A stretch of DNA of 64,000 nt, from contig OY970178.1 of NCBI GenBank assembly GCA_963707915.1, positions 1,952,001 to 2,016,000 of the forward strand, given 5' to 3'. Below are positions 3,580-48,971 of this stretch, in pieces; position 1 is the first letter of the stretch, and every line of letters starts with the position of its first letter. The translations under genes were made by a program, and so were the position numbers. The notes under the pieces were generated by a model that worked only from the letters and a program-made list of their open reading frames with translations, did not search any database and had not been told where the DNA came from. This DNA comes from Candidatus Eiseniibacteriota bacterium. Its GTDB lineage: Bacteria > Eisenbacteria > RBG-16-71-46.

Positions 3580-3609
3580 GCGGGGCAGCATAGCGGGCCG
3601 GGGCGGGCG

Positions 3610-3845
3610 CTCCAACGGGGGCGGCGGAGCGGGGACCGGGCGCGGGGGCTCCGAGACGGGGCCGGCGGAGCGGGCACCGGGCGCGGGGGCTCCAACGGGG
3701 GCGGCGGAGCGGGCACCGGGCGCGGAGGACGGCTAAGTACACACACGCTCGCCCTCCGCGCCCGGTGCCCGCCCCGCCGGCTCGCCCTGCGCGCCGGCTC
3801 GCCCTGCGCGCCGGGTGCCCGCCCCGCCGGCTCGCCACGCCCGCG
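3610..3845. repeat. GC-rich ~40-bp tandem repeats (3 copies) plus inverted copies; 20-bp perfect inverted repeat 3709-3728/3753-3772
   Basis: Units start at 3610, 3649 and 3690 (ctccaacgggggcggcggagcgggcaccgggcgcgggg). gcgggcaccgggcgcggagg pairs with cctccgcgcccggtgcccgc around a 24-nt loop. Confidence 0.8.
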
Positions 3846-31025: not shown

Positions 31026-32321
31026 TCAGCGCCCCCTGCCCGCGGCCGAGTCGGGCGGGCCGGCGGCGTAGCCGATGCCCGACTTCTCGAGGTAGGCGTA
31101 CACGCCCGCGGCTAGCTGGCGCGCGATCTGGGCCTGGAACTCCTCGCTCGCGAGCAGGCGGGCCTCGACCGGGTTGTTGATGAACGCCGTCTCGACCAGC
31201 ACCGAGGGGAACTCCACCGACTTGAGCACGACGAATCCGGCCTGCTTCACGCCGCGCTCCCCGAGCCGGCGGTCGCGGGTGACGTGGTCGAGCAGGCTGG
31301 TGGCGAGCAACTGGCTCTGCTGCAGGGCCGAGGAGCGCTTCACGTCGTACAGGATGCTCACCAGGTCGTCGTCGGCCTGCTGGGGCACGCCGCCGACCAG
31401 GTCGGCCGCGTTCTCCATGTCGGCCAGGTCCTTGGTGGCCTGGTCGGTGGCCCCGCGCAGGGAGAGGAAGTAGACCTCGGTCCCGCTTCCGCTCCCACGC
31501 CGCGGCGAGGAGTTGGCGTGGAGGCTGATGAACAGGTCCGCCCGGGCCTGCTCGGCGATGCGGTAGCGCTCGCGCAGCGGGATGAAGGTGTCGTCGTCGC
31601 GCGTCAGCACCACGCGGATGCCGGGCGTGCGGCCCAGCTCCGCGGCGAGCGCGCGCGCCACGGCCAGGTTGGCCTGCTTCTCCACCACGCCGCGCAGGCC
31701 GCGCGCGCCGGTGTCCTCGCCACCGTGCCCGGCGTCCACGACCACGACGCGCACCCGCGACGGCTTCTTCACCGCGGCGACGGCGGCAGGGACCTGCTCC
31801 ACGGCCGCCCCGGCACCGGGACGCGTCACGTCCACCACGACGCGGAACGGCTTGTCCGGCTCGCCCTCCAGGGTGAAGACGCGGAAGGGCACCGAGTCGC
31901 TCAGCCACACCTGGAAGCGCGCGCCCCGGCGCCCGGTGAGCACCTCGACCGAGTCCACCAGCCCGTCGCGCACCGCGAGCACGGCGGGCACCCCGGCCTC
32001 GCGCAACAGCGGCTGCCCGGGCACGCTCACCACGAGCGCGCGGGTGCGGCCGGAATCCGGCGCCACCAGCGTCACCGGCGCCGAGAAGTCGAACACCAGC
32101 CGCGTGGCGGCGGGCGCCGATCGCGAACGCAGGCCGGTGAGGAACACGCCGCGCGCGGCGGCGGCCGGGCCGGGGATCGCCGCGAGCAACAGCGCCGTGA
32201 CCGCGGCCGCGAGCCCAAGCGCACGGCGGAGCGTGACGGCAGCGCCCCCGGTTCGCCGTGACCGAGCGTCACGGACGACGGCGGCGGGACCGCGCCCGCC
32301 GCCGCCTTCCGGGCCCCTCAC
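31026..32321 (-). CDS. amiC: N-acetylmuramoyl-L-alanine amidase (AMIN + Amidase_3)
   Basis: DAGHGG, FISLHAN, VLVETAF; start uncertain. Confidence 0.9.
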   Translation of the reverse strand: MRGPEGGGGRGPAAVVRDARSRRTGGAAVTLRRALGLAAAVTALLLAAIPGPAAAARGVFLTGLRSRSAPAATRLVFDFSAPVTLVAPDSGRTRALVVSVPGQPLLREAGVPAVLAVRDGLVDSVEVLTGRRGARFQVWLSDSVPFRVFTLEGEPDKPFRVVVDVTRPGAGAAVEQVPAAVAAVKKPSRVRVVVVDAGHGGEDTGARGLRGVVEKQANLAVARALAAELGRTPGIRVVLTRDDDTFIPLRERYRIAEQARADLFISLHANSSPRRGSGSGTEVYFLSLRGATDQATKDLADMENAADLVGGVPQQADDDLVSILYDVKRSSALQQSQLLATSLLDHVTRDRRLGERGVKQAGFVVLKSVEFPSVLVETAFINNPVEARLLASEEFQAQIARQLAAGVYAYLEKSGIGYAAGPPDSAAGRGR

Positions 32322-32331
32322 GCGCCGGGCC

Positions 32332-33810
32332 TCACTCGAGCCCCAGCGGGATGTAGCGGGTGTTGCCGTCGGTCGTCACCAGAAGGGTCGCGTGCGCCTT
32401 CCCCGAGGTCCGGGCGGCTTGCAGCGCCTTCGCGAAGGCCGCCGCCGAGGTCACCGGCCTGCCGCCCACCTCCTCGATCAGGTCGCCTTCCTGCAGCCCC
32501 GCCTCCTGCGCCGAGCCGCCGTCCGCGACGTCGGTCACGACCACGCCCGAGGGCGCGCCGTCTCCGGCCCTCTCTTCGGGCGTGAGGTCGCGCACCCGCA
32601 GGCCGCCGGGCACGGGCACGGTCCCCTCCGCACCCGGCGACGGGGCCCCGGCCACCGCCGCATCGGTGCGCTCGGCCAGCGTCAGCGTGATGGGCAGGCG
32701 GCGTCCGTCGCGCAGCACGACCAGCCGGATGCGGCTCCCGACCGGCATGTCGGCCACCTGGAAGCGGAACTTCTGCATGTCCGTGACGGGCGCGCCGTTC
32801 ATCTCGACGATGACGTCGTTGCGCTTGAGGCCCGCCCGGGCGGCCGGCTTGCCCTCGAGCACACCCTGGACCACCACGCCCTTGCTGTCCTTGATGCCGA
32901 AGCCGTCCGCCAGGTCGGGGGTCAGCTCGGCCAGCGTCACTCCCATCCAGGCCCGTTTCACCTTGCCCGAGGCGATGAGCTGTTCGGCCACGTGCTTCGC
33001 CAGGTTGATGGGGATGGCGAAGCTGATGCCCTGCCCGCTCGGGTTGATGGCGGTGTTGATGCCGATGGCCTCGCCGTGGATGTTGCACAGCGGGCCGCCC
33101 GAGTTGCCGAAGTTGATCGAGGCGTCGGTCTGGATGAAGTCCTGGTAGGCGGGGTTGCCGCCGAAGATGTTGAGGTTCGAGCGCCCCTGGGCGCTGATGA
33201 TGCCCACGGTCACCGTGCCGCGCAGTTCGCCCAGCGGGTTGCCGATCGCGATGGCCCAGTCGCCGATGCGCAGCTGGTCCGAGTCGCCCAGCGGCATCGA
33301 CGGCAGGTCGTGCCCGTCGATCTTGATGATGGCGACGTCGGTCTCCTGGTCGGTGCCGACCACGGTGGCCTTGAAGGTCCGCTTGTCGTTGAGCGTGACG
33401 GTGATGCCTTCGGCGTTGGCGACCACGTGGTTGTTCGTCAGGATGTGCCCCCCGGAGTCGATGATGAAGCCCGAGCCCGAGGAGGGTTCGACGCGCGGGC
33501 GCGAGGGCGGCTCCTGGCCGAAGAGACGGCGGAACATCTCGTCCTGCGGGAAGGTCGTGGCACCGGAGACCTTCTTCTTCACGTCGATGAAGACGACAGC
33601 GGGCAGAGTCCGCTCGACCACGCCCACGAACGGGCTCTCGAGCGAGCCCGGGCCGCCCGCGATCGCGGGCCGCTCCGGGCGCTGGGCCGTGGAGTCGCGC
33701 TGCAGGCCGAGCCCGGCGCTGAGGCCCAATCCGATCACGAGTCCCGCGAGGACGAGACCCGCCGCCGTGAAGTAGTGGGTGCGCGGCCGGGTGAAAGGCT
33801 GACTGCTCAT
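32332..33810 (-). CDS. degP: DegP/HtrA serine protease with two PDZ domains
   Basis: TNNHV, GNSGGPL, two PDZ domains. Confidence 0.93.
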   Translation of the reverse strand: MSSQPFTRPRTHYFTAAGLVLAGLVIGLGLSAGLGLQRDSTAQRPERPAIAGGPGSLESPFVGVVERTLPAVVFIDVKKKVSGATTFPQDEMFRRLFGQEPPSRPRVEPSSGSGFIIDSGGHILTNNHVVANAEGITVTLNDKRTFKATVVGTDQETDVAIIKIDGHDLPSMPLGDSDQLRIGDWAIAIGNPLGELRGTVTVGIISAQGRSNLNIFGGNPAYQDFIQTDASINFGNSGGPLCNIHGEAIGINTAINPSGQGISFAIPINLAKHVAEQLIASGKVKRAWMGVTLAELTPDLADGFGIKDSKGVVVQGVLEGKPAARAGLKRNDVIVEMNGAPVTDMQKFRFQVADMPVGSRIRLVVLRDGRRLPITLTLAERTDAAVAGAPSPGAEGTVPVPGGLRVRDLTPEERAGDGAPSGVVVTDVADGGSAQEAGLQEGDLIEEVGGRPVTSAAAFAKALQAARTSGKAHATLLVTTDGNTRYIPLGLE

Positions 33811-34896: not shown

Positions 34897-35838
34897 TCAG
34901 AACTGCGCGGTGAACGCGACCCGGTGCGTGTCACCGAGGTCGAAACGCATCGGCACGAAGGCGTAGTCCACGCGCAGGCCGACCAGCGCGTAGCCGACCC
35001 CCAGGCTGTAGCTCGCGGCGTCGTCGTTCACGCGCAGCCCGCCGCGCAGGGTGGCGACGCCGGAACCGTTGGCCCCGCCGGCAGTGGCCACCTCCACCCC
35101 CATCATGCCGACGCCGTCGCGGCCGCGGGCGAAGCGGGCCTCGAGCGCGGTGCGCAGCGCGGCGCCGCGCGCCAGGCCGTGTTGCCAGGAGCCGCCCGCC
35201 TGCACCGCGACCGGCAGCGGCATGGCGGCGCCCGGACCGCCGTCGAGCGTGTAGCGCGCATCCCCGCCGAGATTGTGAGCGCTGAGCCCCAGGCGCACGC
35301 CGGGCAGCCGGGCCGGCACCCAGACCGCGCCGAACCCGGCCGCGTAGGCGGTCGCGGAGACCTCGGCCATCCGCTCGCGCAGGACCTGCACCGTGCCACC
35401 CACGCTCAGCCCGGGCGCGACGACGCGCCCGTGGCCCAGCGCGAACTCCAGGTCGTGGTAGCCGAAGGAGCCGCTCGCGGTCGGGTTCCCGTCCGCGTCG
35501 GTCGCGGCGATGGGCTCGGAGTAGAGCGCGCGCAAGGAGACCGCGGTGCCGCCGCCGAAGGAGCGGTTCGCGAGCGCGAACTGCTCGAGGCGCAGCGACT
35601 GCAGGTACTCGGTGTGCGTTCCCGTGAGCTGCACGCCCTTCACGCCCGCGAGCCCGGCCGGGTTCCAGAAGGCCGCCTCGACGCCCTGCGCGAGCGACGC
35701 GAACGCGCCACCGAGCGCGGCGGCCCGCGCCCCGCCCGGGATCTCCAGGAAGGCGAAGGCCGACGTGGCGCAGGTGGCGGGCCGCGCGCAGAGCAGGACG
35801 AGCGCGGCGCACGCGGCCGCGGCACGGAGTGGCTTCAT
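34897..35838 (-). CDS. PorV/PorQ-family outer-membrane beta-barrel
   Basis: FLEIPGGARAAALGGA, FWNPAGL, C-terminal LGDTHRVAFTAQF. Confidence 0.85.
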   Translation of the reverse strand: MKPLRAAAACAALVLLCARPATCATSAFAFLEIPGGARAAALGGAFASLAQGVEAAFWNPAGLAGVKGVQLTGTHTEYLQSLRLEQFALANRSFGGGTAVSLRALYSEPIAATDADGNPTASGSFGYHDLEFALGHGRVVAPGLSVGGTVQVLRERMAEVSATAYAAGFGAVWVPARLPGVRLGLSAHNLGGDARYTLDGGPGAAMPLPVAVQAGGSWQHGLARGAALRTALEARFARGRDGVGMMGVEVATAGGANGSGVATLRGGLRVNDDAASYSLGVGYALVGLRVDYAFVPMRFDLGDTHRVAFTAQF

Positions 35839-35963
35839 CAGATCCCCTTGGAGCAGGCGCCGGCCGGTCGCAGCCGCCACCACGAAGACGCGGGCGGGGC
35901 GGAGCCGGCTTTCCCGGCCCCGCTCCCTGCCCAGGCGAAGATGGAGTCTACCACGCGGATCGA

Positions 35964-37352
35964 TCAGCCCCGGCCGTGACGCTCCCCACCCTGGCCCCGC
36001 TCCGGGTTGTCCCGCGCGGGTGCCGGACGCGGGGCCGGGCTGCTCGGCGGCGGCGAGGGCCGCGACTCGTCACGCGGGCGATCGGCCTTGGGCGGCGGCG
36101 ACGAGGGACGCGCCCCCTCGCGCGGACGCTCGTACCGCGGCGACGGCGCCGACGGACGCGAGGTCTCGCGCGGCGAGCGGTAGACCGGCGCCGACCGCGT
36201 GTCGCGCGGGCGATCCACGCGCCCGCCCTCGTCAGGACCCGGGCGCCCCGCGGGCCCCCAGGTCGATCCCTGCCGGCCACCCGGGCCCGGCCGCGTGCCC
36301 TCCTGCAGCCGCCTGCCTTCCACCGGCTCCCGCACGCCCGGTCGGTTGGACCCGATCGGCACGCGCACGCCCGCGCCGATCCCGCCCCGGCCGTTGCCGC
36401 CACCGAGGAAGCCCGGCGGCAGCGGCTTGCCTTCCTTCCAGCGCGAGCCGTCGTAACGGCTCGGCGGGGCGTAGCCCGCAGGCGGCGCCGTCTTGCGGCG
36501 CGTGAGATGGCCGCTCCAGAGCGCGTTCCACTGCCGCCGGCCGTTCCAGGACGAGTAGTAGGGCCGGTCGTACGGGGCGCACGGGTAGCAGCGCGGCACG
36601 TAGCAGAAGTAGGGCACCGTGCCGAACCAGTAGCGCGGCCCCCAGCTCCAGCCCCAGTAGACGCGGAAGTCGAAAGCCGAACAACTCGTGTAGTAGGGGT
36701 CGTAGCCATCCCACCACGCCCACTGGTTGGGACGGTGGCAGTCGTTGCAGAGGTAGCGCGGGTAGCGCACGGCCTGGTGGATGTAGTACGAGCTGTAGGC
36801 GGTGGCGAAGAGCTCGGGGTCGTTGGCGTCGCTCAGCACCTGCCGGCGGATGCGCTCCATCGCCACGAACGGGTCGCCCATGATGCGACCGTCCGAGGTC
36901 ACGTCCTGGTCGTCGTCCTCCTCCCCCACGTAGCCGGCACCCTCGGCCTGGGGATCGTAGGGACGCAGGTAGCGGGGCAGGGCGTTGAAGGGCTCGCGGG
37001 AGAGGAGGGCGACGATGTAGCCCTGCCCCACGGGGCCCTGCACGACGAGCTGCAGACCCGACTGGGCGGGCGGCACCCGGTAGGTCTGCCGGCCCTCGAC
37101 GAAGCCGCTGCGGCCCTCGTAGGGATACAGCACGCGCACGTAGCCTTCCGAGTCGATGTCGTAGACCAGGAGGTAGCCGTCATCCGAGGCGCGCACCTTG
37201 ATCTGGATCGGTTCGCCGGGCTCGTACACCGCGTCCTTGCCCCGGTCGGTCCAGATGTCCAGGCCCATCGCCCGGGCCCCAGCCGGGGACGGCGAGAGGA
37301 CGAGTCCGATCGCGAGGACGCCCAGAAGCCACCGCATTCGCAACATGGTCAC
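35964..37352 (-). CDS. Secreted DUF4384 protein with CxDCH module and disordered tail
   Basis: DIWTDRG..AVYEPGE..DGYLLVYDIDSEG; YLCNDCH; Trp/Tyr-rich region then Pro/Arg-rich tail. Confidence 0.85.
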   Translation of the reverse strand: MTMLRMRWLLGVLAIGLVLSPSPAGARAMGLDIWTDRGKDAVYEPGEPIQIKVRASDDGYLLVYDIDSEGYVRVLYPYEGRSGFVEGRQTYRVPPAQSGLQLVVQGPVGQGYIVALLSREPFNALPRYLRPYDPQAEGAGYVGEEDDDQDVTSDGRIMGDPFVAMERIRRQVLSDANDPELFATAYSSYYIHQAVRYPRYLCNDCHRPNQWAWWDGYDPYYTSCSAFDFRVYWGWSWGPRYWFGTVPYFCYVPRCYPCAPYDRPYYSSWNGRRQWNALWSGHLTRRKTAPPAGYAPPSRYDGSRWKEGKPLPPGFLGGGNGRGGIGAGVRVPIGSNRPGVREPVEGRRLQEGTRPGPGGRQGSTWGPAGRPGPDEGGRVDRPRDTRSAPVYRSPRETSRPSAPSPRYERPREGARPSSPPPKADRPRDESRPSPPPSSPAPRPAPARDNPERGQGGERHGRG

Positions 37353-37894
37353 GCTCCTCCTGGAGGTCCGGGCCGTGGTCCGCCGGCCGGCCGCGAGTCC
37401 CGCGGCTGCTCGGCCGGAAGACGCTCCCGGTCCCTCTCGTCATGCCCGTTGTTCTTCCTGTTACCCGGCGTGCGCCGGGTCTTCTCCCGGACCTTCACGT
37501 CGCCGGGCCCCGAGGCCTTCCCGGGGGCCGTCCCGGCCCGCCACGAATCGTAGTCGCGCGGCTCGCGGTATCGCTTCTGGTCCCGGTACGCAGCCGGATA
37601 GCGGTATCGGCCGAACGAGGGGTTCTGTTGCTTGATCCGCACGTACTGTTCGCGGTAGACGCGGACGGTCTCCGGGTGACGATCCCACGCGTAACGGAAT
37701 CCGTGGCCCGCGCACCAGTCGTAGTAGGGATCGAGGTAGCGGTACCCGTGACAATCATAGCAGTAGTAGCTCGGCGACGGGCGTCCGGAAGGGGCGTATG
37801 ACCCCGCCAGCGGGTGGCGGGTCCCGACCCAGGCCGCACAGCCCGGGATCACGGCGAGCACGACGGCCGCGCAGGCGATCTGCGTCCAGCGCAC
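37349..37894 (-). CDS. Putative lipoprotein with CxDCH module
   Basis: Lipobox-like VIPGC; YYCYDCH; 4-nt overlap with the downstream gene. Confidence 0.75.
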   Translation of the reverse strand: MRWTQIACAAVVLAVIPGCAAWVGTRHPLAGSYAPSGRPSPSYYCYDCHGYRYLDPYYDWCAGHGFRYAWDRHPETVRVYREQYVRIKQQNPSFGRYRYPAAYRDQKRYREPRDYDSWRAGTAPGKASGPGDVKVREKTRRTPGNRKNNGHDERDRERLPAEQPRDSRPAGGPRPGPPGGA

Positions 37895-37916
37895 CAGAAC
37901 CCCCTTCCTGCCCGGT

Positions 37917-38774
37917 CTACCGGCGCAGCCAGACGATGGGCCGCCGCGGCGCGCCGCCCTCTTCGCCCGCCGGCTTCGCCTTCAGCTCGCGATTGCCCGC
38001 GTCGATCTGGTAGGCCCAGTCGAGGGTCACCTGGGTCGGGCCCACGGCGGTGATGCGGAACTTGGCGAAGTGGTTGTCACGGGTCCAGACCACGTAAGCG
38101 TGCCCAACGATGGCCTCGACCGTCCCGCTCGGCGACCAGCCCGATTCGGCATCCGGGGCGAAGTCCACGGCGTCGAGCGAGGAGACGTAGCCCGCGTCCT
38201 GGATGTCGGTGGACGTGCCGGACGCAAAGACCTGCTGGTAGGCGTACCCCAGCGAGTCCACCCAGTAGCCGAAGAAGATGTCGGCCGGCGCGTCGATGGT
38301 GTTGGTGCGCGCGAAGGCCGAGAAGTCGTAGCCGATGTTCGTCTCGTAGACGAGGAAGTTGTTGAGCACCAAGCCGGCGCCCGCAGGCCGGGGCGTGTCG
38401 AAGACATCGTCGTAGGACAGGTCGCTCTCCGCCCCCGCCCGGTTCACCGCGGCGACCGCGAAGAAGCGGGTGGCGCCGTTCGCGAGGCCGGTGACCACGT
38501 ACTCGACGTACTGGGCCCCCGCCGGGGCCGGGATGGCCGCGATCCGCGTGTACTCGCAGCCCGTCCCCCCGCAGGGCCCCTCGTAGATGCGGTAGCTGAC
38601 GACGTCGGGCTCGGTGTTCGCCAGCCAGACCAGCGTGACCTGGCCGTCCCCGGTGACGCTGAACAATCCCCGCGGCGCGGCGGGCGGGACGATGGGCGCG
38701 GTGGATTCCTCCCGGCAGCCGGCAAGCAGGACGCCGAGCAGCATGAGTGGCAGGAGCAGCCTGTTCATCGTCAT
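37917..38774 (-). CDS. Lipoprotein with fibronectin type III domain
   Basis: LLAGC lipobox; PAAPRGL..GDGQVTLVW..YRIY..AVAAVN..GAES; GGAGG RBS. Confidence 0.85.
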   Translation of the reverse strand: MTMNRLLLPLMLLGVLLAGCREESTAPIVPPAAPRGLFSVTGDGQVTLVWLANTEPDVVSYRIYEGPCGGTGCEYTRIAAIPAPAGAQYVEYVVTGLANGATRFFAVAAVNRAGAESDLSYDDVFDTPRPAGAGLVLNNFLVYETNIGYDFSAFARTNTIDAPADIFFGYWVDSLGYAYQQVFASGTSTDIQDAGYVSSLDAVDFAPDAESGWSPSGTVEAIVGHAYVVWTRDNHFAKFRITAVGPTQVTLDWAYQIDAGNRELKAKPAGEEGGAPRRPIVWLRR

Positions 38775-38826
38775 CCCTCCCGGTCGGGTGTGGTCACGGC
38801 GGGTCTGGTCGCCTGCATCATACTTG

Positions 38827-38841
38827 GCAACCGTCGTGCCA
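38827..38841 (-). promoter_or_regulatory. Sigma54 promoter of the lipoprotein-DUF4384-PorV operon
   Basis: Perfect TGGCAC-GACGG-TTGC; IHF-like CAA-N4-TTG at ~38879-38888. Confidence 0.8.
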
Positions 38842-39184
38842 TGCCACAGAGCCCGCTAGCGCCGGCGGGGCAGCGTCGCAACCCCTTGCGGATCAAAGCG
38901 GGAAACGCACGGAGTCGCCCCGGCGGAAGGCCCGCGGGGCGACTCGATCGTGCGGCCGGGACGCAGGTGTGAGCGCTGCGCCACACGTGCCTCTAGGAGC
39001 GACAGGACACCGGCCAGTTCCGGACGCAGTCGACTGCGACATCCCCCAATGTCCGCCAACTACGTCCTGGGCCGGTGCCCTGAAACCCTGAGCGGGCCGG
39101 TTCTGCGCGCTGAGATGCGAAGACCGGGTGTGCCTGGCTGCTCGGCGTTGTCGCCGGCTCGCTTCGGGTGAATCGCTCGTTATC

Positions 39185-39325
39185 CAAGCTAGGCGGGTGC
39201 AGGAGGCGGTGCGTTGTCTAGTGACTGGGGCTCGTACCCTCGACCGGGTCCCCCGCATTGCCGCCTAGCCCAGATTCTCATCCGGTGGTGCCACCGGACT
39301 TGATTGGAGGTCCCCCCCTCCGCTG
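39185..39325 (-). ncRNA. Candidate sigma54-dependent structured RNA (3' end uncertain)
   Basis: Lies downstream of a -24/-12 promoter; hairpins GGAGG/CCTCC, TCCGGTG/CACCGGA and GCTAGGCGG/CCGCCTAGC; no credible ORF. Confidence 0.4.
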
Positions 39326-39335
39326 GGCAGCGAAT

Positions 39336-39351
39336 AGCACGCGTCATGCCA
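39336..39351 (-). promoter_or_regulatory. Sigma54 promoter
   Basis: TGGCAT-GACGC-GTGCT; IHF-like TCAA-CGCG-TTG at ~39379-39389; AT-rich tract to ~39560. Confidence 0.65.
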
Positions 39352-39648
39352 TCGATTCGTCAAGCCGCGCCTATTCTCTCAACGCGTTGCACCGCAACTG
39401 AATGCGTTATGCGCCACGGCCACCGACCGACCCCGGCGACGGCCCGGAACAGGCGAAATCTATCAAGAACTTTGATGGTTCTGCGGACCATGGCCTAACC
39501 ACATGGAACGCATGGTCTTCGATGCAAAGACAATTGATAGGGCGATTGGCAACGGAAGTGCGAGTCGGAGCTCTGGCGGGACACCGGCGTGGAACGCCGG
39601 AGCGGGACCCCGGGGGGCCGGGCCGGCCCGCCGCGGGGAGGACGCGGA

Positions 39649-42600
39649 CTACGAGCGGCGGCGCTCGAGCTCGAGGGTGCGGATCCGGGAGAGCAGCGTC
39701 GGGTAGCTCAGGCCGAGCTCGCGCGCCACTTTCGCCTTGTTCCAGCGATGCCGGTCGAGCGCTTCGGAGATCACCCGGCGCTCCAGCTCCGAGACGCTCG
39801 AGCGCAGGCTCTGGCCCGCCTCGCCCGGACCCTCCCCCGGCGCCGCGGACCGCGTGGCGGGCTCGCGCATCTCGGGCGGCAGCAGTTCGATCCCGAGCTG
39901 GTCGCCCTGGTCGGCGAGCACCACCATCCGCTTCACCGTCTTGTCCAGCTCGCGCACGTTGCCGCGCCACTGGTGGGAGAGGAACAGCTGCATCACCTCG
40001 GGGCTGAATCCGCGCAGGTCCTTCTCCATCTGGCGCGAGTACACGCCGAGGAAGTGCTGCGACAGCACCGGGATGTCCTCGCGCCGCTCGCGCAGCGCGG
40101 GCACCCGCACGGTGATGTCGTTGAGGCGGTAGTAGAGGTCCTCGAGGAAGCGGCCCTCGCGGATGCGCTCGCGCAGGTCCGTGCCGGTGGCGCAGATCAC
40201 GCGCGCGTCCACCCGCTTGCTGCGCGTGGCGCCGACCGGGCGGATCTCGCTGCGGTCCAGCACGTGCAGCAGCTTCGCCTGCACCGACTCGGGGACCTTC
40301 TCGATCTCGTCGAGGAAGATGGTCCCGCCCTCGGCCTCCTCGAAGAGACCCTGCTTGTCGCGCACCGCCCCGGTGAAGGCGCCGTGCACGTAGCCGAACA
40401 ACTCGCTCTCGAGCAGCGACTCGGGCAGCGCGGCGCAGTTCACCTGCACGAACGGCCGGTCGCGGCGGTTCGACGATTCGTGCACGACCTGGGCCAGCAG
40501 GCCCTTGCCCGTGCCGGTCTCCCCCATGAAGAGGACGGTGGCCGAACTGTCGCCGACCTTCGAGAGCAGGGCGAGCAGGCCCTTCATCTCGCGCGAGGCG
40601 GTGACCACGCGCTCCATGCCGGCGCTCGGCTTCAGCTTGTCGCGCAGCTCGCGGTTCTCGACCAGCAGGAGCGAGCGCTGCGCCTCGACGATCGCCACCG
40701 CCGCGCTGTTCGCCAGCACCGCGAGCAGGTTCACATCGCGCTGCTTGAACGGCCCGAGCAGGTTGTCGTTGAGCCGGTCGACGAACACCAGGCCCACCGC
40801 CTGCGAGGGGAAGTTGAGCGGCACGCAGACCAGCGAGGCGACGCTCTCGAGCGCGTCGGCCACCGCCGCGCCGAAGCGTGGATCGGCGGCCACCCGGCTG
40901 GAGAACACCGGGCCGCTCTCGGCCAGGCGCGGTCCCACCGCCTCCTCCAGCGCGCGCAGGATCCGCCGCGCGCGGTCCCGTCCCAGCCCGTGTTGCGCGA
41001 CCACGTCGAGCCTCATGCCCCCGCTCGAGAACGCCACGAAGCCGCGGTCCCCGCCGGCGTTCTCCACGGCGAGCTTGACGGTCTGGGCGAGCAGACCGTT
41101 CATGTCCGAGGTCTCGCGGAACAGGCGGTTCGCGTCCTCCAGCGCGCGGAACTCGTTGCTGGTGGACAGCGAGACGGCGACGTACTGGCGCTCGATCTCG
41201 CGCCGCAGCGCCTCGGCGCGCCCGCCCGCAGGCGAGCCGGCCTCCAGCAGCCAGAGCTCGGCCTGTTCGAGCAGGCCCAGCGCCTGGTCGTAGTGCTCGC
41301 GCTCGGTCTCGAGGCGCGCGAGGGTGAGCAGCGACTCGGAGGCCAGCGACACGACACCGAGCTGGCGGAACAGCGTGGCCGCACGCTTGGCCGCGTCGGC
41401 GACCGGTTCGAGCGGCAGCCGCAGCCGGACGCTGGCCGGCAGCAGCAGCAGGAACTCGCCCCACCCGGCCAGCGTGGCGGCCAGCTCGTAGGTCTCGCCC
41501 AGGTCCTCGAAGGCCTGGGCCGCGCCGAGGAGCTTGACCTGCATGCCGGGCGCGGCCCCGCGCACCGCGTCGAGCTGGGCGAGGGCGCGGTCGGCGATGG
41601 CGGCCTCGATGCTGTCGCCCAGCTGCGCGGCCAGCGCGGCGCCCCGCGCCAGGTGCGCCTGCGCCTCGGACGCCCGTCCGGCCGCGAGCAGCGCGAGCCC
41701 CGTGCGGGTCTCGAGCTCCGCGACCAAGTCGCCGTGCGGCGCGGCGCGGCGCGCCTCGTCGAGCGCGGGCTCGAGCAGCGCGAGCGCCGCCATGGCGTCG
41801 CCGCGGTCCAGCGCCAGCTCCCCGAGGAACTCGCGCGCCAGCGTCGCCTCGCGCAGCGCTCCCACCGACCCCGCCAGCTCGAGCGCGCGCCGGAAGTTCT
41901 CCTCGGCGCTCTCCAGCTGCCGCCGCCGCCGCGCGAGCAGGCCGGTCGCCAGCAGCGCCGCGGCCTCGCCCTGCACGTGGCCGGTCTCGCGCGAGATCCT
42001 CAGCGACTGGCGGAAGTTCTCCTCGGCCAGGTCCCACTGCCCCAGCCGGTAGCGGATCAGGCCCAGGTTCTGGTGGTGCCCGCGCATGCGGGAATACAGG
42101 CCCGCCCGCTCGTCGAGGCGCAGCGCCTGCTCCAGGAAGCGCGTGGCCTCGCGCCACTCGCGCAGGTTCTTGTAGACCAGTCCGAGATTGTTGAGGGCGG
42201 TGACCAGCCCGTCGGTGTCGTCGATGCGGCGGAACGTGGCGGCGGCGTTCTGCAGCCAATCGATGGCCTCGGCGGAGCGGCCCTGTCGCGTCGCGCACAG
42301 CCCGAGCGTCGCCGTGACCTGGCCGACCGTGCGGTGCTCGTCGGTATCGCGCAGGACAGCATAGGCGTAGTGCGCGTAGCGGCGGCTGCGGCGGTACTGC
42401 CCCTGCTGGATGAGCGCCGCGGCGTAGTGGGCGGCGATGTTCGCCGCCTGCCGGGGGTCGCCGAGCAGGCGGGCCGCGGCGCGCGCCTCGCGCAGGGCGG
42501 CGACGGCGGACTCGTAGTCACCGCGCGCCGTGTGGGTCTCGGCCACCCGCAGGAGGATGCGGACGCGCTCCACCGGGGCGTCGGGACCGACCGCGCTCAG

Positions 42601-42738
42601 GGCGGCGCGATACTCCTCGAGCGCTTCCGAGAAGTTGTCAGCCGCCAGATGCAGATCGCCGATCGCTTCGTGACGGCCGGCGCCGGTACGAGCGGCGTCC
42701 GCTGCGCGAGCCAGATCGGGGGGGATCTCTCTCTGCAC
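39649..42738 (-). CDS. TPR-GAF-AAA+ sigma54 enhancer-binding protein
   Basis: About 520 aa of TPR-like repeats (ALNNLGLVY, QNLGLIRY), GAF, GETGTGK, GAFTGA, HTH; no receiver domain. Confidence 0.93.
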   Translation of the reverse strand: MQREIPPDLARAADAARTGAGRHEAIGDLHLAADNFSEALEEYRAALSAVGPDAPVERVRILLRVAETHTARGDYESAVAALREARAAARLLGDPRQAANIAAHYAAALIQQGQYRRSRRYAHYAYAVLRDTDEHRTVGQVTATLGLCATRQGRSAEAIDWLQNAAATFRRIDDTDGLVTALNNLGLVYKNLREWREATRFLEQALRLDERAGLYSRMRGHHQNLGLIRYRLGQWDLAEENFRQSLRISRETGHVQGEAAALLATGLLARRRRQLESAEENFRRALELAGSVGALREATLAREFLGELALDRGDAMAALALLEPALDEARRAAPHGDLVAELETRTGLALLAAGRASEAQAHLARGAALAAQLGDSIEAAIADRALAQLDAVRGAAPGMQVKLLGAAQAFEDLGETYELAATLAGWGEFLLLLPASVRLRLPLEPVADAAKRAATLFRQLGVVSLASESLLTLARLETEREHYDQALGLLEQAELWLLEAGSPAGGRAEALRREIERQYVAVSLSTSNEFRALEDANRLFRETSDMNGLLAQTVKLAVENAGGDRGFVAFSSGGMRLDVVAQHGLGRDRARRILRALEEAVGPRLAESGPVFSSRVAADPRFGAAVADALESVASLVCVPLNFPSQAVGLVFVDRLNDNLLGPFKQRDVNLLAVLANSAAVAIVEAQRSLLLVENRELRDKLKPSAGMERVVTASREMKGLLALLSKVGDSSATVLFMGETGTGKGLLAQVVHESSNRRDRPFVQVNCAALPESLLESELFGYVHGAFTGAVRDKQGLFEEAEGGTIFLDEIEKVPESVQAKLLHVLDRSEIRPVGATRSKRVDARVICATGTDLRERIREGRFLEDLYYRLNDITVRVPALRERREDIPVLSQHFLGVYSRQMEKDLRGFSPEVMQLFLSHQWRGNVRELDKTVKRMVVLADQGDQLGIELLPPEMREPATRSAAPGEGPGEAGQSLRSSVSELERRVISEALDRHRWNKAKVARELGLSYPTLLSRIRTLELERRRS

Positions 42739-42844
42739 TTTCGAACCCTCGAGTCACATCACCCGGTTGGACATCCCGGTGGTTCGACTCCGGGAGGCCT
42801 TTGGTGCCGCGAAGCGCTTTGGAAGTCCGTTCGATCCGTCGGGA

Positions 42845-43162
42845 CTACCTCGCTCCGAGATATCGATTGGCCCACATCCTGAAGATCCAGCGCAGCCACG
42901 GGTCGGTGGCAGGGCCCCCGGTATGAGCACCCTTCCCACGCGGGACCGGCGACATCGAGCCCTGCGCGAGCGGATGCGGGGTCTGACCGACATCGGGCTC
43001 CCCGGAAGTCGGAGCAGCCGGCGGCTTCGACACGCTCGCGAGCGACGAGGCGGCGGACGGTGTGGCCGCCCTCCCGTCCGCGAACGCGGTCGACCAGCCT
43101 GCCGCGGCGACCACCGAGAGCAGGACCAGCAGGAGCAGGAGTCTGTTGCGATCGGAAATCAT
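42845..43162 (-). CDS. Small secreted peptide (105 aa) upstream of the TPR regulator
   Basis: Signal peptide ending AFA; low-complexity body with SGEPDVG; amphipathic WLRWIFRMWANRY tail; GGAGG RBS. Confidence 0.75.
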   Translation of the reverse strand: MISDRNRLLLLLVLLSVVAAAGWSTAFADGRAATPSAASSLASVSKPPAAPTSGEPDVGQTPHPLAQGSMSPVPRGKGAHTGGPATDPWLRWIFRMWANRYLGAR

Positions 43163-43278
43163 GCGCTTCCGCTCCCTCCAAAGCTGGCGACTGTGACGCA
43201 TACAGCGACAGAACCGACCGGGGCTGGAGCCGCCCCGGACGAACCCGAGAACCTGGGGGACCTCTTTGCGCCGGGGTA

Positions 43279-43307
43279 AGTATCCAGCGACACCGGGCGA
43301 CCGTCAA
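43279..43307 (-). promoter_or_regulatory. Sigma70 promoter of the peptide/regulator unit
   Basis: TTGACG-N17-GATACT. Confidence 0.6.
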
Positions 43308-43411
43308 CAGAAACCCCACCGACGCGGCCCTGGATGCCGGCAGGCCGCGGAGATCCCGGCGCCGCGGCGGCCCGGGGACGCCCCGGGCAGGGGGAGGGGA
43401 CCGGGCGAGGA

Positions 43412-44362
43412 CTACCTGCGGTCCAGGAACTCCCCGGCGGCCATGCGAACGAGCCCGTAGCGCAGCCCCTGGGTGGAGCAGACCAGCGCCGAGGAGGGAA
43501 AGCGCTCGAACAACAGGGCCACCACCAGGGCGCCGGCGACGACGATGTCGGCCCGGCCCTCCCCCACGGTGGAGAAGCCCCTGCGATCCTGGTGGCTTGC
43601 CCGGGAGAGCCGTTCCACCAATCCGAGGAGTCGCTCGGGGCGGATGGGCCACCCCTCGAGCAGCGCCGGGTCATAGGTTTCGAGTTGGCGGTCCATCGAC
43701 GCCAGGACAGTCACCGTCCCGCCGACGCCAGCGAAGAGCGGTACCTTGTTCGGCATTGATGCACAATGATGCATGACTCCAGCCTGCACTTCGGCCTTGA
43801 GGGCAAGGATCTCGTCGGGTCCGGGTGGGTCGGAATGCAGGAACCGCTCGGTCAGGCTGACCGCGCCGAATGGAAGGCTCGCCCATCGGCCCGTCCGGGC
43901 GCCGACGCCGCTGACCACCTCGGTGCTGCCCCCGCCGATGTCGAAGACCACGCAGGCGCTGCGGGCCGCCTTGCGGCCGAGGCCGAGGATGACCGAGCGG
44001 TAGACCAGTTGCGCCTCGTCCTCCCCCGTGAGGATGCGGACGGGCAGGCCCGACCGCCGTTCGACGATGTCGGCCACTTCCTTGCCGTTTCGGGCGTTGC
44101 GGATGGCGGCGGTGGCACCGATCACGATGTGCTTCGCACCCAGCGACCGCGCCCGCCGCACGAAGCCCGCGGCCAGGCCGCCGACCCGCTGCGCCAGTTC
44201 CTCCTCGATGGTCCCGGCCCGGTCCAGCCCGCGCGCCAGGCGGCAGACCTCCCCCGCCCTGGCCACCGTCTCCAGCGTCCCGTCCGGGCCGAGGCGCTCG
44301 TCGACCTCGGCGACCAGGAGCCGGATGGAGTTGGACCCGATGTCAATTGCAGCTACGCGCAT
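43412..44362 (-). CDS. ppx: Ppx/GppA exopolyphosphatase (short form)
   Basis: IDIGSNS, ATAAIR, DIGGGSTE. Confidence 0.93.
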   Translation of the reverse strand: MRVAAIDIGSNSIRLLVAEVDERLGPDGTLETVARAGEVCRLARGLDRAGTIEEELAQRVGGLAAGFVRRARSLGAKHIVIGATAAIRNARNGKEVADIVERRSGLPVRILTGEDEAQLVYRSVILGLGRKAARSACVVFDIGGGSTEVVSGVGARTGRWASLPFGAVSLTERFLHSDPPGPDEILALKAEVQAGVMHHCASMPNKVPLFAGVGGTVTVLASMDRQLETYDPALLEGWPIRPERLLGLVERLSRASHQDRRGFSTVGEGRADIVVAGALVVALLFERFPSSALVCSTQGLRYGLVRMAAGEFLDRR

Positions 44363-44377
44363 ATGTCAATCTCGTGG

Positions 44378-44935
44378 TCAGAGCAGGTAGTCTTCGAGTT
44401 CGTTCGTTCCGCGTGTCGGCCGGGGCCCGGCGATCACGTTCGGACCGGGCTCGCTGGAGGAGGAGGACCCGACCACTCCGCCGGTTCCCGACCGGGCGGC
44501 CGAGGGGCGGCCATCTCCACCCCGTGGCCGCTCGATGGCCGCCGACCGCGACTTGCGGCCCCCGGCCACCGGGGCCGGGCGAGCCGAGGGCCCGCCACGC
44601 GACCCGTCGTGGCCGTCGGCGCGCGCTTCCTGTCCGGCACCGGAGAGCGCCCAGCCCAGCAACTCCGTCAAGTCCGGCGCGTCCGCCCTCAGCCGGAATC
44701 GCACCCGCCTGCCTTCGCGGTGCCCGGCCACCAGGCCCACGCGCTCCAGCGCCTGCAGGTGCCGGGTCGTGCACGACTGCGACAGCCCCACTTCTTCCGC
44801 CAACTCGCCGACACACCGGTCGGAGACCGCGAGCGCCCGGACCAGGCGGAAACGCGAGGGCTCCCCCAGGCAGGCCAGGACCGGACGCGCCGGGTCTTCG
44901 TTCGGATCTGGATCTTTCATTGCACGACGATGCAT
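44378..44935 (-). CDS. ArsR/SmtB-family regulator with disordered tail
   Basis: LGEPSRFRLVRAL...VGELAE..GLSQS.TTRHLQ.L...GLV; start 44935 or 44920. Confidence 0.85.
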   Translation of the reverse strand: MHRRAMKDPDPNEDPARPVLACLGEPSRFRLVRALAVSDRCVGELAEEVGLSQSCTTRHLQALERVGLVAGHREGRRVRFRLRADAPDLTELLGWALSGAGQEARADGHDGSRGGPSARPAPVAGGRKSRSAAIERPRGGDGRPSAARSGTGGVVGSSSSSEPGPNVIAGPRPTRGTNELEDYLL

Positions 44936-45010
44936 ATCACATCCCGCGATTGACCGCAATGAGTTGGCTCTGATAGTTTTCCCATTGCCCGGCAATGACC
45001 GCGCACACCC

Positions 45011-46084
45011 ATGTCCAATCTCCCGAATCCATCGCCTCACCCCCCCGCCGCCCCGAGCTTCTACGGACTGACCCGTGAACGGTTGGCCGAACGGCTGGCG
45101 AGCCAGGGTGTGCCCGCCTTCCGGGCATCCCAGTTGTTCACCTGGGTCTACCGGAAGCACCAGCGCGACCCCGAAGCCATGAGCAACCTTCCGCTCGCGT
45201 TCCGGCGTGAACTGTCCGGGCTCGTGGACCTCCGCCTGCCGACCGTCGCCTCGCACCTCGCCACGCCCGACGGCGACACCCACAAGCTGGTGCTCTCCCT
45301 GGCCGACGGCCGGCGGGTCGAGTGCGTCTCGATGCGCGCGGAGCGCGGCCTGACGTTCTGCCTCTCGAGCCAGGTCGGCTGCGCCCTGCGCTGCTCGTTC
45401 TGCGCGACCGGGACGATGGGACTCCAGCGCAACCTGCGCGCCGAGGAGATCGTGGCCCAGGTGCTGATCATGGGAGACCACCACGGCTGGGAGGACGACG
45501 GCTTCAACCTGGTGCTCATGGGCATGGGCGAGCCGCTGGCGAACTACGAGGCCGTGATGGAGGCCGTGCGCATCCTCCACGACGAGCTGGGACTCAACCT
45601 CGGCGCGCGACGCATCACGCTGTCCACCAGCGGACTGGTGCCGCAGATCGAGCGCCTCGCCGGGGAAGGCCTCGCGCTCGGACTGGCGCTCTCGCTGCAC
45701 GCCACCACCGACGCGCTGCGCGACACGCTGGTGCCCGTCAACCGGCGCTGGCCGCTGCGCGAGCTGCTGCCGGCCGTCCAGGCCTACGGGCTGCGCACCG
45801 GGCGGCGCGTGACGCTCGAGTACACGCTGATCGCCGACCTGAACGATGCGCCGGAGGACGCCGACCGGCTGGCCGCCATCGCGCGCGACCTGCCCAGCAA
45901 GATCAACCTCATCCCCTACAATCCCGTTCCCGGGCTCCCGTACCGGAGCCCCGGCCCGCAGGCGCTCCAGGCCTTCGCCGAGCGGCTCTACCCGCAGGCT
46001 CCCGCCGTCACCCTGCGCCACACGCAGGGCGGCGAGATCTGGGCCGCCTGCGGACAACTCGCGAACCTGGGCGACGGGGCCTGA
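45011..46084 (+). CDS. rlmN: 23S rRNA A2503 / tRNA A37 C2-methyltransferase
   Basis: SQVGC.L.CSFC, MGMGEP, AACGQL. Confidence 0.96.
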   Translation: MSNLPNPSPHPPAAPSFYGLTRERLAERLASQGVPAFRASQLFTWVYRKHQRDPEAMSNLPLAFRRELSGLVDLRLPTVASHLATPDGDTHKLVLSLADGRRVECVSMRAERGLTFCLSSQVGCALRCSFCATGTMGLQRNLRAEEIVAQVLIMGDHHGWEDDGFNLVLMGMGEPLANYEAVMEAVRILHDELGLNLGARRITLSTSGLVPQIERLAGEGLALGLALSLHATTDALRDTLVPVNRRWPLRELLPAVQAYGLRTGRRVTLEYTLIADLNDAPEDADRLAAIARDLPSKINLIPYNPVPGLPYRSPGPQALQAFAERLYPQAPAVTLRHTQGGEIWAACGQLANLGDGA

Positions 46085-46110
46085 GCCGACATGCACAGCC
46101 GGTTCGCGCC

Positions 46111-47624
46111 GTGAGCCTCCGCGCCCGCCTGATCGCGGCCCTGCTGGCGCTCGCGCTCCTGCCGACCGCGGTCTTCACCACCTTCACGCTGATCGAGTTG
46201 GACCGTGCCACGCAGGGGTGGTTCCGCCCCGGCGTGGACCGCGCGCTCGAGTCGGCCCAGCAGGTGAGCCGGACCGCGCTCGCGCGGATGGAAGCCACCT
46301 CGCTCTCGCGGGCCCGCGCCTGGGCCCGCTGGGCGACCGGCCCGGAACTCGACCTCGCCGGCCACACCCGTGCCCGCGCCGGGTTGCTGGAGGCGGGACT
46401 CGACTTCCTGCAGATCTACGGCCGGGTGGACGGCCGCTGGAGACTGCTCGAACAGGTGGTGCCCGAGGGGACGCCCCGGCTTCGCGGGGCGGACCTCTCC
46501 GCCGACCTGGACGCCGCGCTCGCCGGCGACGGCCTGGTCCGGTCGAACCACGGCGCGCTCGCCGGGGTCGCCCGGGTGGACTCCACCCACGCGCTCGCGG
46601 CGGGCATGCGGGTGCCGGCCGGCTTCTTCGCCGACGTGGAGCGCGTGAGCGAGGGACGCGGCGCGTACAGCCGGCTCGGCGTGATGGTGGACGTGCAGCG
46701 CCCGCTCACCTGGCTGCTGGTCGGGGGGCTGGTGCTCCTGCTGGGCGCGCTCGCGCTGTTCCTCGCCCGGGCGCTCGCCCGTCCCATCGCGCGTCCCCTC
46801 ACCGAGCTGTCGGCCGCGCTCGACCGCGTGGCCGACGGCGACCTGCGGGTGCGCGTGACCCCGCGCGGGGCGCGCGAGTTGCGCATGCTCGGCAGCGCCT
46901 TCAACGCCATGACCGCGCGGCTCGAGGAGGCGCGCACCGCGATGGCCGAGGCCGAGCGCGAGGCGGCCTGGCGGGACGTGGCGCGCAAGCTGGCGCACGA
47001 GTTCAAGAACATCCTCACCCCGCTCAAGCTCTCCCTGCAGCTGGTCGAGGCGGAGCTCGCGTCCGCGCCCGGGCCGCGCCGTGACACCGGCACGAACCTC
47101 CAGGCCGCCCTCGACGAGGTCGCGCAGCTGGCGCGGCTGGCCGAGCAGTTCTCCCAGTACGCGCGCCTGCCCGAGCCGCAACTGGAGTCGCTCGACCTGG
47201 CCCAGGTGGCCCGTTCGGCGGCGGGCCGCCCGATGTGCGAAGGTGTGGCGATCGCCTGCACGACCGATGAACCGGTGCCGGTGCGGGGCGACCGCGTGCT
47301 GCTGGCGCGGGCCGCACACAACCTGGCGCTCAACGCATGCGAGGCCAGCCCCGCGGGCGCGGTGGTCGAGATCGCCGCGCGACGCGAGCACGGTCACGCG
47401 GTGCTCGAGGTGCTGGACCGTGGCCCCGGCCTGCCCGCCGGGCTCACCGACCGGCTGTTCGAGCCCTACGTGAGCACGAAGCGGCGCGGCAGCGGCCTGG
47501 GTCTCTCGCTGGTGCGGGACATCGCGCGGCAGCACGGCGGGACGGTGTCGCTCCAGGACCGCGCGGGCGGCGGGGCGTGCGCACGGCTCGTGCTGCCGCT
47601 GGCGAAGGAAGGCGAGGTCTCTCG

Positions 47625-47628
<4 letters not shown>
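46111..47628 (+). CDS. HAMP sensor histidine kinase (NtrY-like)
   Basis: Two TM segments, HAMP, AWRDVARKLAHEFKN. Confidence 0.9.

Positions 47629-48971
<1,343 letters not shown>

Follow-up and report, generated by a model that had tools for sequence, protein, structure and literature searches.

The 64,000-nucleotide (nt) stretch of contig OY970178.1 analysed here (the window) belongs to the diderm phylum Candidatus Eisenbacteria. It carries a conserved regulatory cassette that consists of a gene for a small protein predicted to be exported, a gene for a sigma54-dependent activator with a tetratricopeptide repeat (TPR) sensor, two sigma54 promoters (P1 and P2) and, between these promoters, a candidate structured RNA (RNA1). 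The cassette is real and conserved, and its mechanism is a proposal drawn from gene order, domains, promoters, a repeated core motif in the small protein, groove residues of the sensor, RNA structure and RNA complementarities. In this proposal, an input of export, processing and re-import, as in the RRNPP systems of peptides and receptors, is wired to an output of a sigma54 activator and a small RNA, as in LuxO/Qrr; we consider the evidence for this reading to be about evenly balanced. No description of a peptide/TPR-sigma54 architecture was found in a full-text literature search, which left most subscription papers and supplements outside its coverage.

The initial annotation of this DNA had described an open reading frame (ORF) of 105 amino acids (aa) with a signal peptide, an SGEPDVG segment and a Trp/Arg tail, about 105 nt upstream of and co-directional with a 1029-aa activator, and had named the presence of such a neighbor at homologous activators as a check of its reading. 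The ORF lies at that place on the minus strand, with 106 nt between its stop codon and the GTG start of the activator, and the association proved to be general. Counted in locus sets that overlap and are kin, and are thus not independent trials, a small ORF precedes the activator in 42/43 genome loci, 63/65 metagenome loci, all 16 loci taken from seven other families and all 15 of a second paralog. The metagenome loci needed at least 560 nt of upstream DNA; of 80, 13 were too short and two, with a match starting at the contig edge, were excluded. Ten further families contributed 30 loci, of which 22 passed automatic filtering for a signal-peptide ORF upstream of the activator, and 15 of these ORFs contained G[DE]xD. 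The spacer between the two genes is 89-119 nt in the orthologues, with a partly conserved hairpin, and 39 nt in the second paralog. Moreover, a match to the TPR sensor (E<=1e-20) was present in 199/201 sampled genomes of the phylum, the weakest of which are perhaps generic TPR proteins. The window's orthologues are mostly from Ca. Eisenbacteria, a taxon name was attached to 3/10 clusters looked up (all Eisenbacteria), and no relative of the cassette was found on viral contigs. The initial annotation had missed RNA1 and two paralogous pairs: the genome holds three pairs of small ORF and activator, and its relatives hold several per genome.

The small protein of this locus has a basic N-terminus, a Leu-rich h-region, an AFA site, the SGEPDVG segment at aa 53-59 and the Trp/Arg tail. 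Among the orthologous small proteins, which measure 91-110 aa (about 90-130 aa across the system), rule-based analysis found the basic N-terminus in 43/43, the h-region in 42/43, an AxA site at aa 21-36 in 38/42 and a lipobox in 0/42. These features predict Sec export and cleavage by signal peptidase I. The only conserved island beyond the signal peptide is the core, as had been anticipated, which reads G-[DE]-P-D within the family (GEPD in 32, GDPD in 9, SEPD in 1 and GEPE in 1 of 43) and G-[DE]-x-D throughout the phylum; its G and D were invariant in 53 windows that had been picked by centring on the motif. The remainder is a Pro/Gly/Ser-rich linker. In comparisons with two close relatives, the core region showed 5/2 and 4/3 synonymous/non-synonymous codon changes, and the linker 1/9 and 4/11. 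Furthermore, the core is tandemly repeated in loci L058, L059, L063, L068, L224, L229 and L231, and its position ranges from just past the cleavage site to just ahead of the tail; its distance from the C-terminus is about 45-75 residues. The core is short, repeated and mobile, and therefore behaves as a short linear ligand. The tail contains 1-5 Trp within the last 25 aa in 43/43 sequences, with a mean best hydrophobic moment of 0.58 and a best 15-aa Kyte-Doolittle mean of 0.57 (maximum 1.37). The small ORF had no Pfam or NCBIfam match, and its Atlas neighbors were unnamed Eisenbacteria clusters with scores <0.9. When called genes of the genome were filtered for an upstream hydrophobic ORF with G[DE]xD, 9/2842 passed, and inspection left two short signal-peptide ORFs, one in this cassette and one in a second TPR-sigma54 cassette. 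Upstream of the distant activators L217, L227, L230, L236, L240 and L241, exported ORFs whose cores are acidic-Pro variants (NPDD, GDPN, GVPD, DDPD or GEPE), and not G[DE]xD, were observed.

A signal peptide and a Trp-rich C-terminus directly ahead of a gene, followed by a spacer with a partly conserved hairpin, are also what an arrest or leader peptide of the SecM/MifM type would offer, which would control translation of the activator in cis. Nevertheless, we regard this explanation as very improbable. The conserved motif is far from the C-terminus, repeated and mobile, the C-terminal sequence is not conserved (no invariant C-terminal column among 37 small-protein sequences), the gap shrinks in the second paralog, and the conserved groove of the sensor would be left unexplained.

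The activator has the features of a bacterial enhancer-binding protein, namely an AAA+ domain with GAFTGA and Walker A/B motifs and a C-terminal Fis helix-turn-helix (HTH) at aa 982-1020. Domain searches confirmed the TPR and GAF regions reported initially and found no receiver domain in the protein, and its score against TIGR02915 was 294.6 (cut-off 502.6). The N-terminal half matched TPR families of Pfam, with TPR_MalT above its cut-off. The AlphaFold2 model of the sensor contains 26 helices (predicted local distance difference test, pLDDT, 95.3; predicted template modelling score 0.92). The first helix of each repeat lines the groove in TPR solenoids, and by this general rule, rather than by inspection of coordinates, 22/30 conserved polar sensor positions in 53 sequences were assigned to the A (groove) helices. 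The conserved groove-helix residues include N183, K190, N191, N224, K/R231, R296, R345 and R384.

Binding of the core to this groove was addressed by complex prediction with the sensor, 33 residues around the core and three controls. The predicted complex passed with a score of 0.54 (best control 0.01), contacts agreed by at least 62% between runs, and the pLDDT of the partner was 47. The mark applied had been reached by 116/157 solved pairs and 2/215 mismatched pairs, and the pairs at the mark with a score <=0.60 comprised 18 solved pairs and both mismatched ones. For the complex suggested by the initial annotation, the model lends weak support to core-groove binding. The core and the groove residues are near-identical in both main paralogs and across families. 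Co-variation of the core with TPR residues, another check named initially, did not emerge, and the Glu/Asp exchange in the core showed none that was independent of phylogeny: the leading mutual-information positions (377, 244, 131 and 231) were rejected, as they follow one clade, with exceptions.

The closest structural neighbors of the sensor were MalT domain III (PDB 1hz4; Z 28.3, root-mean-square deviation (rmsd) 3.7, 355 residues aligned) and Apc5 (Z 28.2), followed by peptide-bound Rap (Z 25.1, rmsd 4.4, 341 aligned), NprR (Z 22.6, rmsd 3.7, 296 aligned) and AimR (Z 22.0, rmsd 4.3, 330 aligned). In sequence searches Rap was matched at E 4e-9, whereas LGN and kinesin light chain ranked far higher (E 1e-30 to 1e-21). 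The Foldseek matches listed, regarded as uninformative, were eukaryotic or designed TPR solenoids, with no RRNPP receptor among them. The protein might be a small-molecule sensor like MalT, in which TPR and GAF bind a metabolite or a cell-wall fragment. The small protein would then be co-transcribed as a partner in the periplasm or tethered to the membrane, and its motif would bind, for example, a protease or transporter. The top structural rank of MalT, the TPR_MalT match, the GAF domain and the weak complex score are in line with this explanation. However, the small ORF accompanies the TPR sensor also in paralogs that have other neighbors and no GAF, and it is found at 3/17 strong sigma54-domain matches of the genome, all three of the TPR type, and we consider a MalT-like sensor to be rather improbable.

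The two -24/-12 sites noted initially downstream of the activator proved to be conserved, with P1 recurring in 33/34 and P2 in 31/31 orthologous loci that have an intact activator and enough downstream DNA; the other 9/43 were truncated or contained premature stops. There are 205 such sites (<=2 mismatches) in the 3.6-Mb genome, and P1 and P2 are not attributed to chance because they are kept across orthologous loci. In addition, a -24/-12 site lies 170-361 nt past the activator in 16/16 loci of seven other families. This linkage points to the activator as the probable driver of P1 and P2. A candidate enhancer, GTGT-N9-14-ACAC, was found upstream of P2 in 17/31 loci; an enhancer upstream of P1 was rejected, as a simple pattern search succeeded in only 7/34. 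The peptide-activator operon itself has a sigma70-type promoter in which TTGAC was invariant in 24/24 aligned upstream regions and the -10 box nearly invariant. P2 precedes a predicted operon of envelope proteins; its lipoprotein and DUF4384 genes also follow P2 in orthologues with enough DNA, and another of its proteins matched the PorV family above cut-off. In an RNA library, a 3870-nt contig of a relative spans the small ORF and the activator and ends 171 nt past the latter; the library may contain DNA, so the contig shows neither transcription nor its absence. One RNA-library run contained 7% of the words.

The region between P1 and P2 is conserved and non-coding in alignments A1 and A2, with a fold z-score of -5.68, which identifies RNA1, of about 325 nt, as a candidate conserved structured RNA gene. 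Its conserved 5' end is located 28-30 nt past the first base of P1 in 32/34 loci, about 3 nt past the expected start, and a 5' hairpin of the RNA1 type follows P1 in 14/16 distant loci. Two-sided changes were found in 7/18 pairs of the 3' hairpin (0/500 shuffles as high) and, with 99.9% of cells paired, in 3/28 pairs of the 5' half (13/500 shuffles), both tests being inflated by relatedness. Model R1, built on the 3' hairpin, matched 56/59 genomes of the same family and rarely any beyond the order. Rfam gave no match for RNA1 at E<=1 and only sub-threshold noise for an orthologue; the Qrr, CrcZ, GlmY and Csr-Rsm models had no match in RNA1, and ARAGORN reported nothing. A divergent housekeeping RNA was considered and rejected, as 6S, signal recognition particle RNA and tmRNA were found elsewhere, and RNase P by motif only. 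In family f9 (L060, L061), the peptide, the activator and both promoters are kept and the RNA 5' end after P1 is different.

RNA1 has two predicted pairing partners, its own operon's leader and the RNA of a paralogous cassette (RNA2). The leader motif GGTCCCC, about 80 nt ahead of the start codon, is complementary to the 5' loop of RNA1, with perfect complements of at least 7 nt in 33/34 loci, at least 8 nt in 25 and 10 nt here. A separate sigma54 promoter serves the second cassette, whose RNA2 starts GGATACGG and whose leader carries CCGTATCC; the complement between the RNA2 5' end and that leader reaches at least 8 nt in 13/14 loci, one of 15 loci not having been parsed. In this second set, locus L066 is changed on both sides and the change in L065 is G-U-compatible. 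Cross pairs reached 8 nt in 0/14 and 2/34 cases, and random leaders did so in 13, 20 and 5 of 600. Genome-wide, leaders with the RNA1 seed were not enriched over control motifs (9 vs 10 and 5).

Moreover, the invariant apical hairpin GGGTACGAGCCC of RNA1 has an exact complement in RNA2. A 12-mer of this site occurs three times in the genome, two of the occurrences being these sites, and the site is the longest perfect complement of the two RNAs, at least 11 nt, in 19/21 genomes (20 chosen from promoter-pattern matches plus this genome); a 12-nt complement appeared in 3/105 shuffle trials. In three genomes, a one-base insertion in the RNA1 loop is matched by a longer RNA2 site; the match is perfect in two of them and, read by eye, relies on two G-U pairs in the third. 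These loci form one clade, hence one insertion event and one later change. The pairing loop was predicted to be open in 20/21 RNA1 folds and 11/21 RNA2 folds. Of 20 second sites of the 13-nt seed that were retrieved, the 7 in coding sequence were treated as chance. At L074, L076 and L087 (about base 3570-3800), a stand-alone sigma54 promoter is followed about 50 nt later by the RNA2 seed; these RNA candidates are short, have a terminator-like hairpin and no adjoining TPR activator, and may be a third partner of RNA1. As to RNA2 itself, relatives keep in it an approximately 100-nt hairpin, with the anti-Shine-Dalgarno-like loop CACCTCC, that is missing in this genome, and its 3' part in L089-L108 shows a highly conserved A-rich single-stranded stretch and then a conserved hairpin. 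Rfam searches of the RNA2 vicinity returned tRNA-type matches only.

Read as DNA, the same motif pairs form inverted repeats and could be regulator binding or inversion sites, or the RNAs could be sponges for CsrA, in which cases no RNA-RNA pairing would occur. CsrA is present in 29/31 related genomes, both RNAs have GGA-containing loops, and Hfq was not found in this 95%-complete genome. On the other hand, imperfect complements keep G-U pairs (leader GGTCCCCTC, L065 and G084), L066 and the clade carrying the one-base insertion show changes on both sides, none of the loci examined had an inverted arrangement, and excerpts of PMC13443453 describe Eisenbacteria CsrA as often predicted to be non-canonical. 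An RNA layer that works without pairing is therefore judged unlikely. A csrA gene was observed at L129:8136-8381 (G000:C1 about 1186200), upstream of a two-component sigma54 system, a ParA/MinD-type ATPase, a FliA-like sigma factor and a GGDEF gene.

Taken together, the preferred reading of signalling by a re-imported peptide would proceed as follows. The small propeptide would be exported by Sec and cut by signal peptidase, and may be tethered at the membrane by its amphipathic tail. Proteolysis on both flanks would release the G-[DE]-x-D core, which might be taken up again by an Opp/Dpp-type transporter; peptide ABC importer loci of this type are present in the genome, and their use in this system is presumed. 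In the cytoplasm, the core would bind the TPR groove and switch the activator, as agonist or antagonist. The activator would then transcribe RNA1 from P1 and the envelope-protein operon from P2. By pairing with the leader of the mRNA for peptide and activator, RNA1 may provide feedback, of either sign, and by pairing with RNA2 it may provide cross-talk between the circuits. The signal could either pass between cells or leave and re-enter the same cell. A broader version, in which cell-cell peptide signalling evolved independently across this diderm phylum, with tethered propeptides and with circuits joined by RNAs that feed back and titrate each other by loop-loop pairing, is tentative and appears to us doubtful.

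Several observations weigh against signalling by a re-imported peptide. The core would have to be excised on both sides, and the cassette contains no dedicated protease or transporter gene. The fold of the sensor does not discriminate, as MalT and Apc5 outrank the RRNPP receptors. No phylogenetically independent co-variation of core and receptor was found, and G[DE]xD was missing from 7/22 upstream ORFs of the distant families. In contrast to RRNPP pherotypes, the core is almost constant throughout the phylum and from paralog to paralog, which argues against kin-specific quorum sensing, and a kin-specific form of the quorum-like system in the initial annotation was accordingly not supported; specificity could reside in the flanking residues, or the signal could be shared or autocrine. 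At the RNA level, families f1 and f2 and one f4 locus are the only ones with a clear leader motif, and 0/10 loci of f3, f7, f9, f17 and f18 carry it. Blocking the leader site left the predicted accessibility of the ribosome-binding site flat (0.37 to 0.35; up in 4 and down in 6 of 34), and release of an anti-Shine-Dalgarno by RNA1 was rejected, there being no consistent gain in predicted accessibility. Finally, we know of no counterpart of the conserved amphipathic tail in RRNPP propeptides.

Many of these features would also be explained by a monitor of export or of the envelope acting in trans, in which unexported precursor, retained at the cytoplasmic face of the membrane, binds the TPR groove through its core, so that impaired secretion turns on envelope genes and RNAs with no processing or import. 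This explanation fits the binding evidence equally well, and it accounts for a core without kin specificity, the sigma70-type promoter, the membrane-seeking tail, the envelope-protein targets and the fact that no protease or importer gene is linked. However, the AxA cleavage sites are conserved, the tandem repeats of the core resemble pheromone precursors, and several paralogous pairs per genome are easier to understand as separate signals than as redundant monitors. Moreover, the known secretion monitors SecM, MifM and VemP act by ribosome arrest in cis. An export monitor is consequently considered somewhat unlikely, while remaining the main competitor of peptide signalling. An HtrA/DegP-type protease gene and an amidase gene are situated at 31026-33810 of the window (minus strand), a few genes past the P2 operon, and the protease is a candidate trimmer of the propeptide.

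In comparison with known systems, the input of the cassette may work like RRNPP and its output like LuxO-Qrr, and the cassette is a member of neither. The RRNPP(A) pairs of Bacillota include Rap-Phr, NprR-NprX, PlcR-PapR and AimR-AimP. RRNPP receptors have an output of an N-terminal HTH or a phosphatase/three-helix bundle, and here the output is a C-terminal GAF-AAA+-Fis HTH. The likeness to RRNPP is that the propeptide, which has a signal peptide, and the cytoplasmic TPR receptor are encoded by adjoining genes, that a genome has several paralogous pairs, and that there are intragenic core repeats, which excerpts of PMC5199041 describe for Phr and NprX propeptides. The closest single case is NprR-NprX, where, according to excerpts of PMC3763537, the backbone of the internal peptide SKPDIVG is held by Asn residues and its single conserved Asp by a conserved Arg; the core here (SGEPDVG) likewise has one key Asp and the groove Asn and Arg, which is a resemblance and not homology. 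Cytoplasmic peptide-TPR receptors are presented as a Firmicutes trait in excerpts of PMC9765709 and PMC10075063, and the detector criteria excerpted from PMC10075063 are propeptides of 10-100 aa (validated 21-50 aa) and receptors of 250-500 aa. The propeptide of 105 aa (91-110 in orthologues) is borderline for the former range and outside the validated one, and the receptor measures 800-1050 aa across the system (1029 at this locus, with a sensor of about 500 aa). As far as excerpts of PMC9765709 and PMC10075063 show, the detector covered Firmicutes and viruses and capped receptors at 500 aa, and it could therefore not report this system. RRNPP hosts are Bacillota or their mobile elements; the orthologues found here are mostly from diderm Ca. 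Eisenbacteria, with none on viral contigs. Sequence similarity to the receptors is at the generic TPR level, and the core is not diversified into pherotypes. Thus, of the RRNPP-like logic put forward initially, the fixed pair, the repeated core and the groove Asn/Arg/Lys residues stood, and membership in RRNPP did not, since receptor size, output domain and host phylum differ. None of the sequence-based findings named initially as refuting the proposal was obtained.

Layouts in which a sigma54 activator is linked to a sigma54-dependent small RNA include CbrB-CrcZ, GlrR-GlmY and Nla19-Pxr. Qrr RNAs are short and Hfq-dependent, whereas the RNAs here are 320-430 nt, structured and in no Rfam family, with mutual complementarity between the two paralogs. 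The input of LuxO of Vibrio also differs, being phosphorylation of a receiver domain. The Qrr RNAs pair with the 5' untranslated region of luxOU, the mRNA of the activator itself, and repress it, as stated in excerpts of PMC2632942. This is the nearest precedent of the pairing with the own leader that is predicted here for both cassettes. MalT shares with this activator a solenoid sensor fused to an ATPase-type transcription activator. MalT belongs to the STAND ATPases, senses maltotriose and has a LuxR HTH; it is not known to have a cognate exported peptide gene or to depend on sigma54. PEP-CTERM/PrsR systems are likewise under sigma54 control, and their exported proteins bear a short motif of Pro and acidic residues and end in a hydrophobic-basic segment; in the present case the tail is amphipathic, with no transmembrane helix, the motif is distant from the end, and the activator stays below the TIGR02915 cut-off.

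If the peptide is the ligand, the activator would represent a peptide-gated sigma54 enhancer protein in diderms, in a phylum common in soil and sediment, and it could yield a peptide-inducible switch. The RNA layer would add two RNA families that are so far unlisted and have one predicted feedback site each. It would also add a link by predicted RNA-RNA pairing of paralogous circuits, in a genome in which no Hfq was detected. If instead the export monitor is true, secretion would be monitored in trans through a receptor, a kind that to our knowledge has not been described in the literature.

Table 1. Features of the cassette and its surroundings. Positions are those of the 64,000-nt window; all cassette parts are on the minus strand.
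Feature	Position	Strand	Basis or remark
Sigma70-type promoter of the peptide-activator operon	43279..43307	-	-35 TTGACG, -10 GATACT
Leader motif GAGGTCCCCC, complementary to RNA1 5' end	43255..43264	-	GGTCCCC in 38/43 leaders
Shine-Dalgarno-like GGAGGGAG of small ORF	43172..43179	-	GGAG invariant in alignment A9
Small ORF, 105 aa, candidate propeptide	42845..43162	-	Predicted to be exported
Predicted Sec signal peptide, aa 1-28	43079..43162	-	Rule-based
Conserved core GEPD, aa 54-57, candidate ligand	42992..43003	-	Motif conservation
C-terminal amphipathic Trp/Arg segment	42848..42907	-	Too weakly hydrophobic for a transmembrane helix
TPR-GAF-AAA+-HTH sigma54 activator, 1029 aa	39649..42738	-	Domain searches
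TPR solenoid sensor, aa 19-520	41179..42684	-	AlphaFold2
GAF domain, aa 546-683	40690..41103	-	PF01590, E 4e-9
Sigma54 AAA+ domain, aa 712-877	40108..40605	-	PF00158, E 1e-64, intact GAFTGA
Sigma54 promoter P1	39336..39351	-	-24/-12 site, 2 mismatches
RNA1, structured non-coding RNA candidate, about 325 nt	39000..39325	-	Starts at predicted +1 of P1
RNA1 5' hairpin, G-rich loop	39306..39322	-	Near-invariant in 32 sequences; complementary to operon leader
RNA1 apical hairpin GGGTACGAGCCCC	39227..39239	-	Complementary to RNA of paralogous cassette
RNA1 3' long hairpin, G-rich loop	39004..39081	-	Followed by pyrimidine-rich tract in most orthologues
Candidate enhancer, GTGT-N12-ACAC palindrome	38967..38986	-	About 140 nt upstream of P2; putative role
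Sigma54 promoter P2	38826..38841	-	-24/-12 site, 1 mismatch
Predicted P2 operon of envelope proteins	34897..38774	-	285-aa lipoprotein, 181-aa ORF, DUF4384 protein, PorV/PorQ-like protein

The second cassette (L047:6172-9171; G000:C1:1910171-1913170, minus strand) is positioned just upstream of a tRNA-tuf cluster and encodes a 118-aa GDPD protein and a TPR-AAA+ activator, followed by its sigma54 promoter and RNA2. No GAF match was found in this activator, which is frameshifted late, and the neighboring tuf is also frameshifted in the assembly. In the third cassette (L048:5804-10082; G000:C1 about 1088800-1093080, minus strand), an IS3-type element lies between the TPR and AAA+ parts, and the 14-kb locus L048 contains no -24/-12 site with <=2 mismatches; genes for M16 and M14 peptidases flank this cassette. 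Upstream of the cassette in the window, at 43412-48971, Ppx/GppA and ArsR-type genes are found on the same strand, along with divergent genes for RlmN, a histidine kinase and an NtrC-type regulator, and this gene order is kept in those orthologous loci of the family that have enough upstream DNA.

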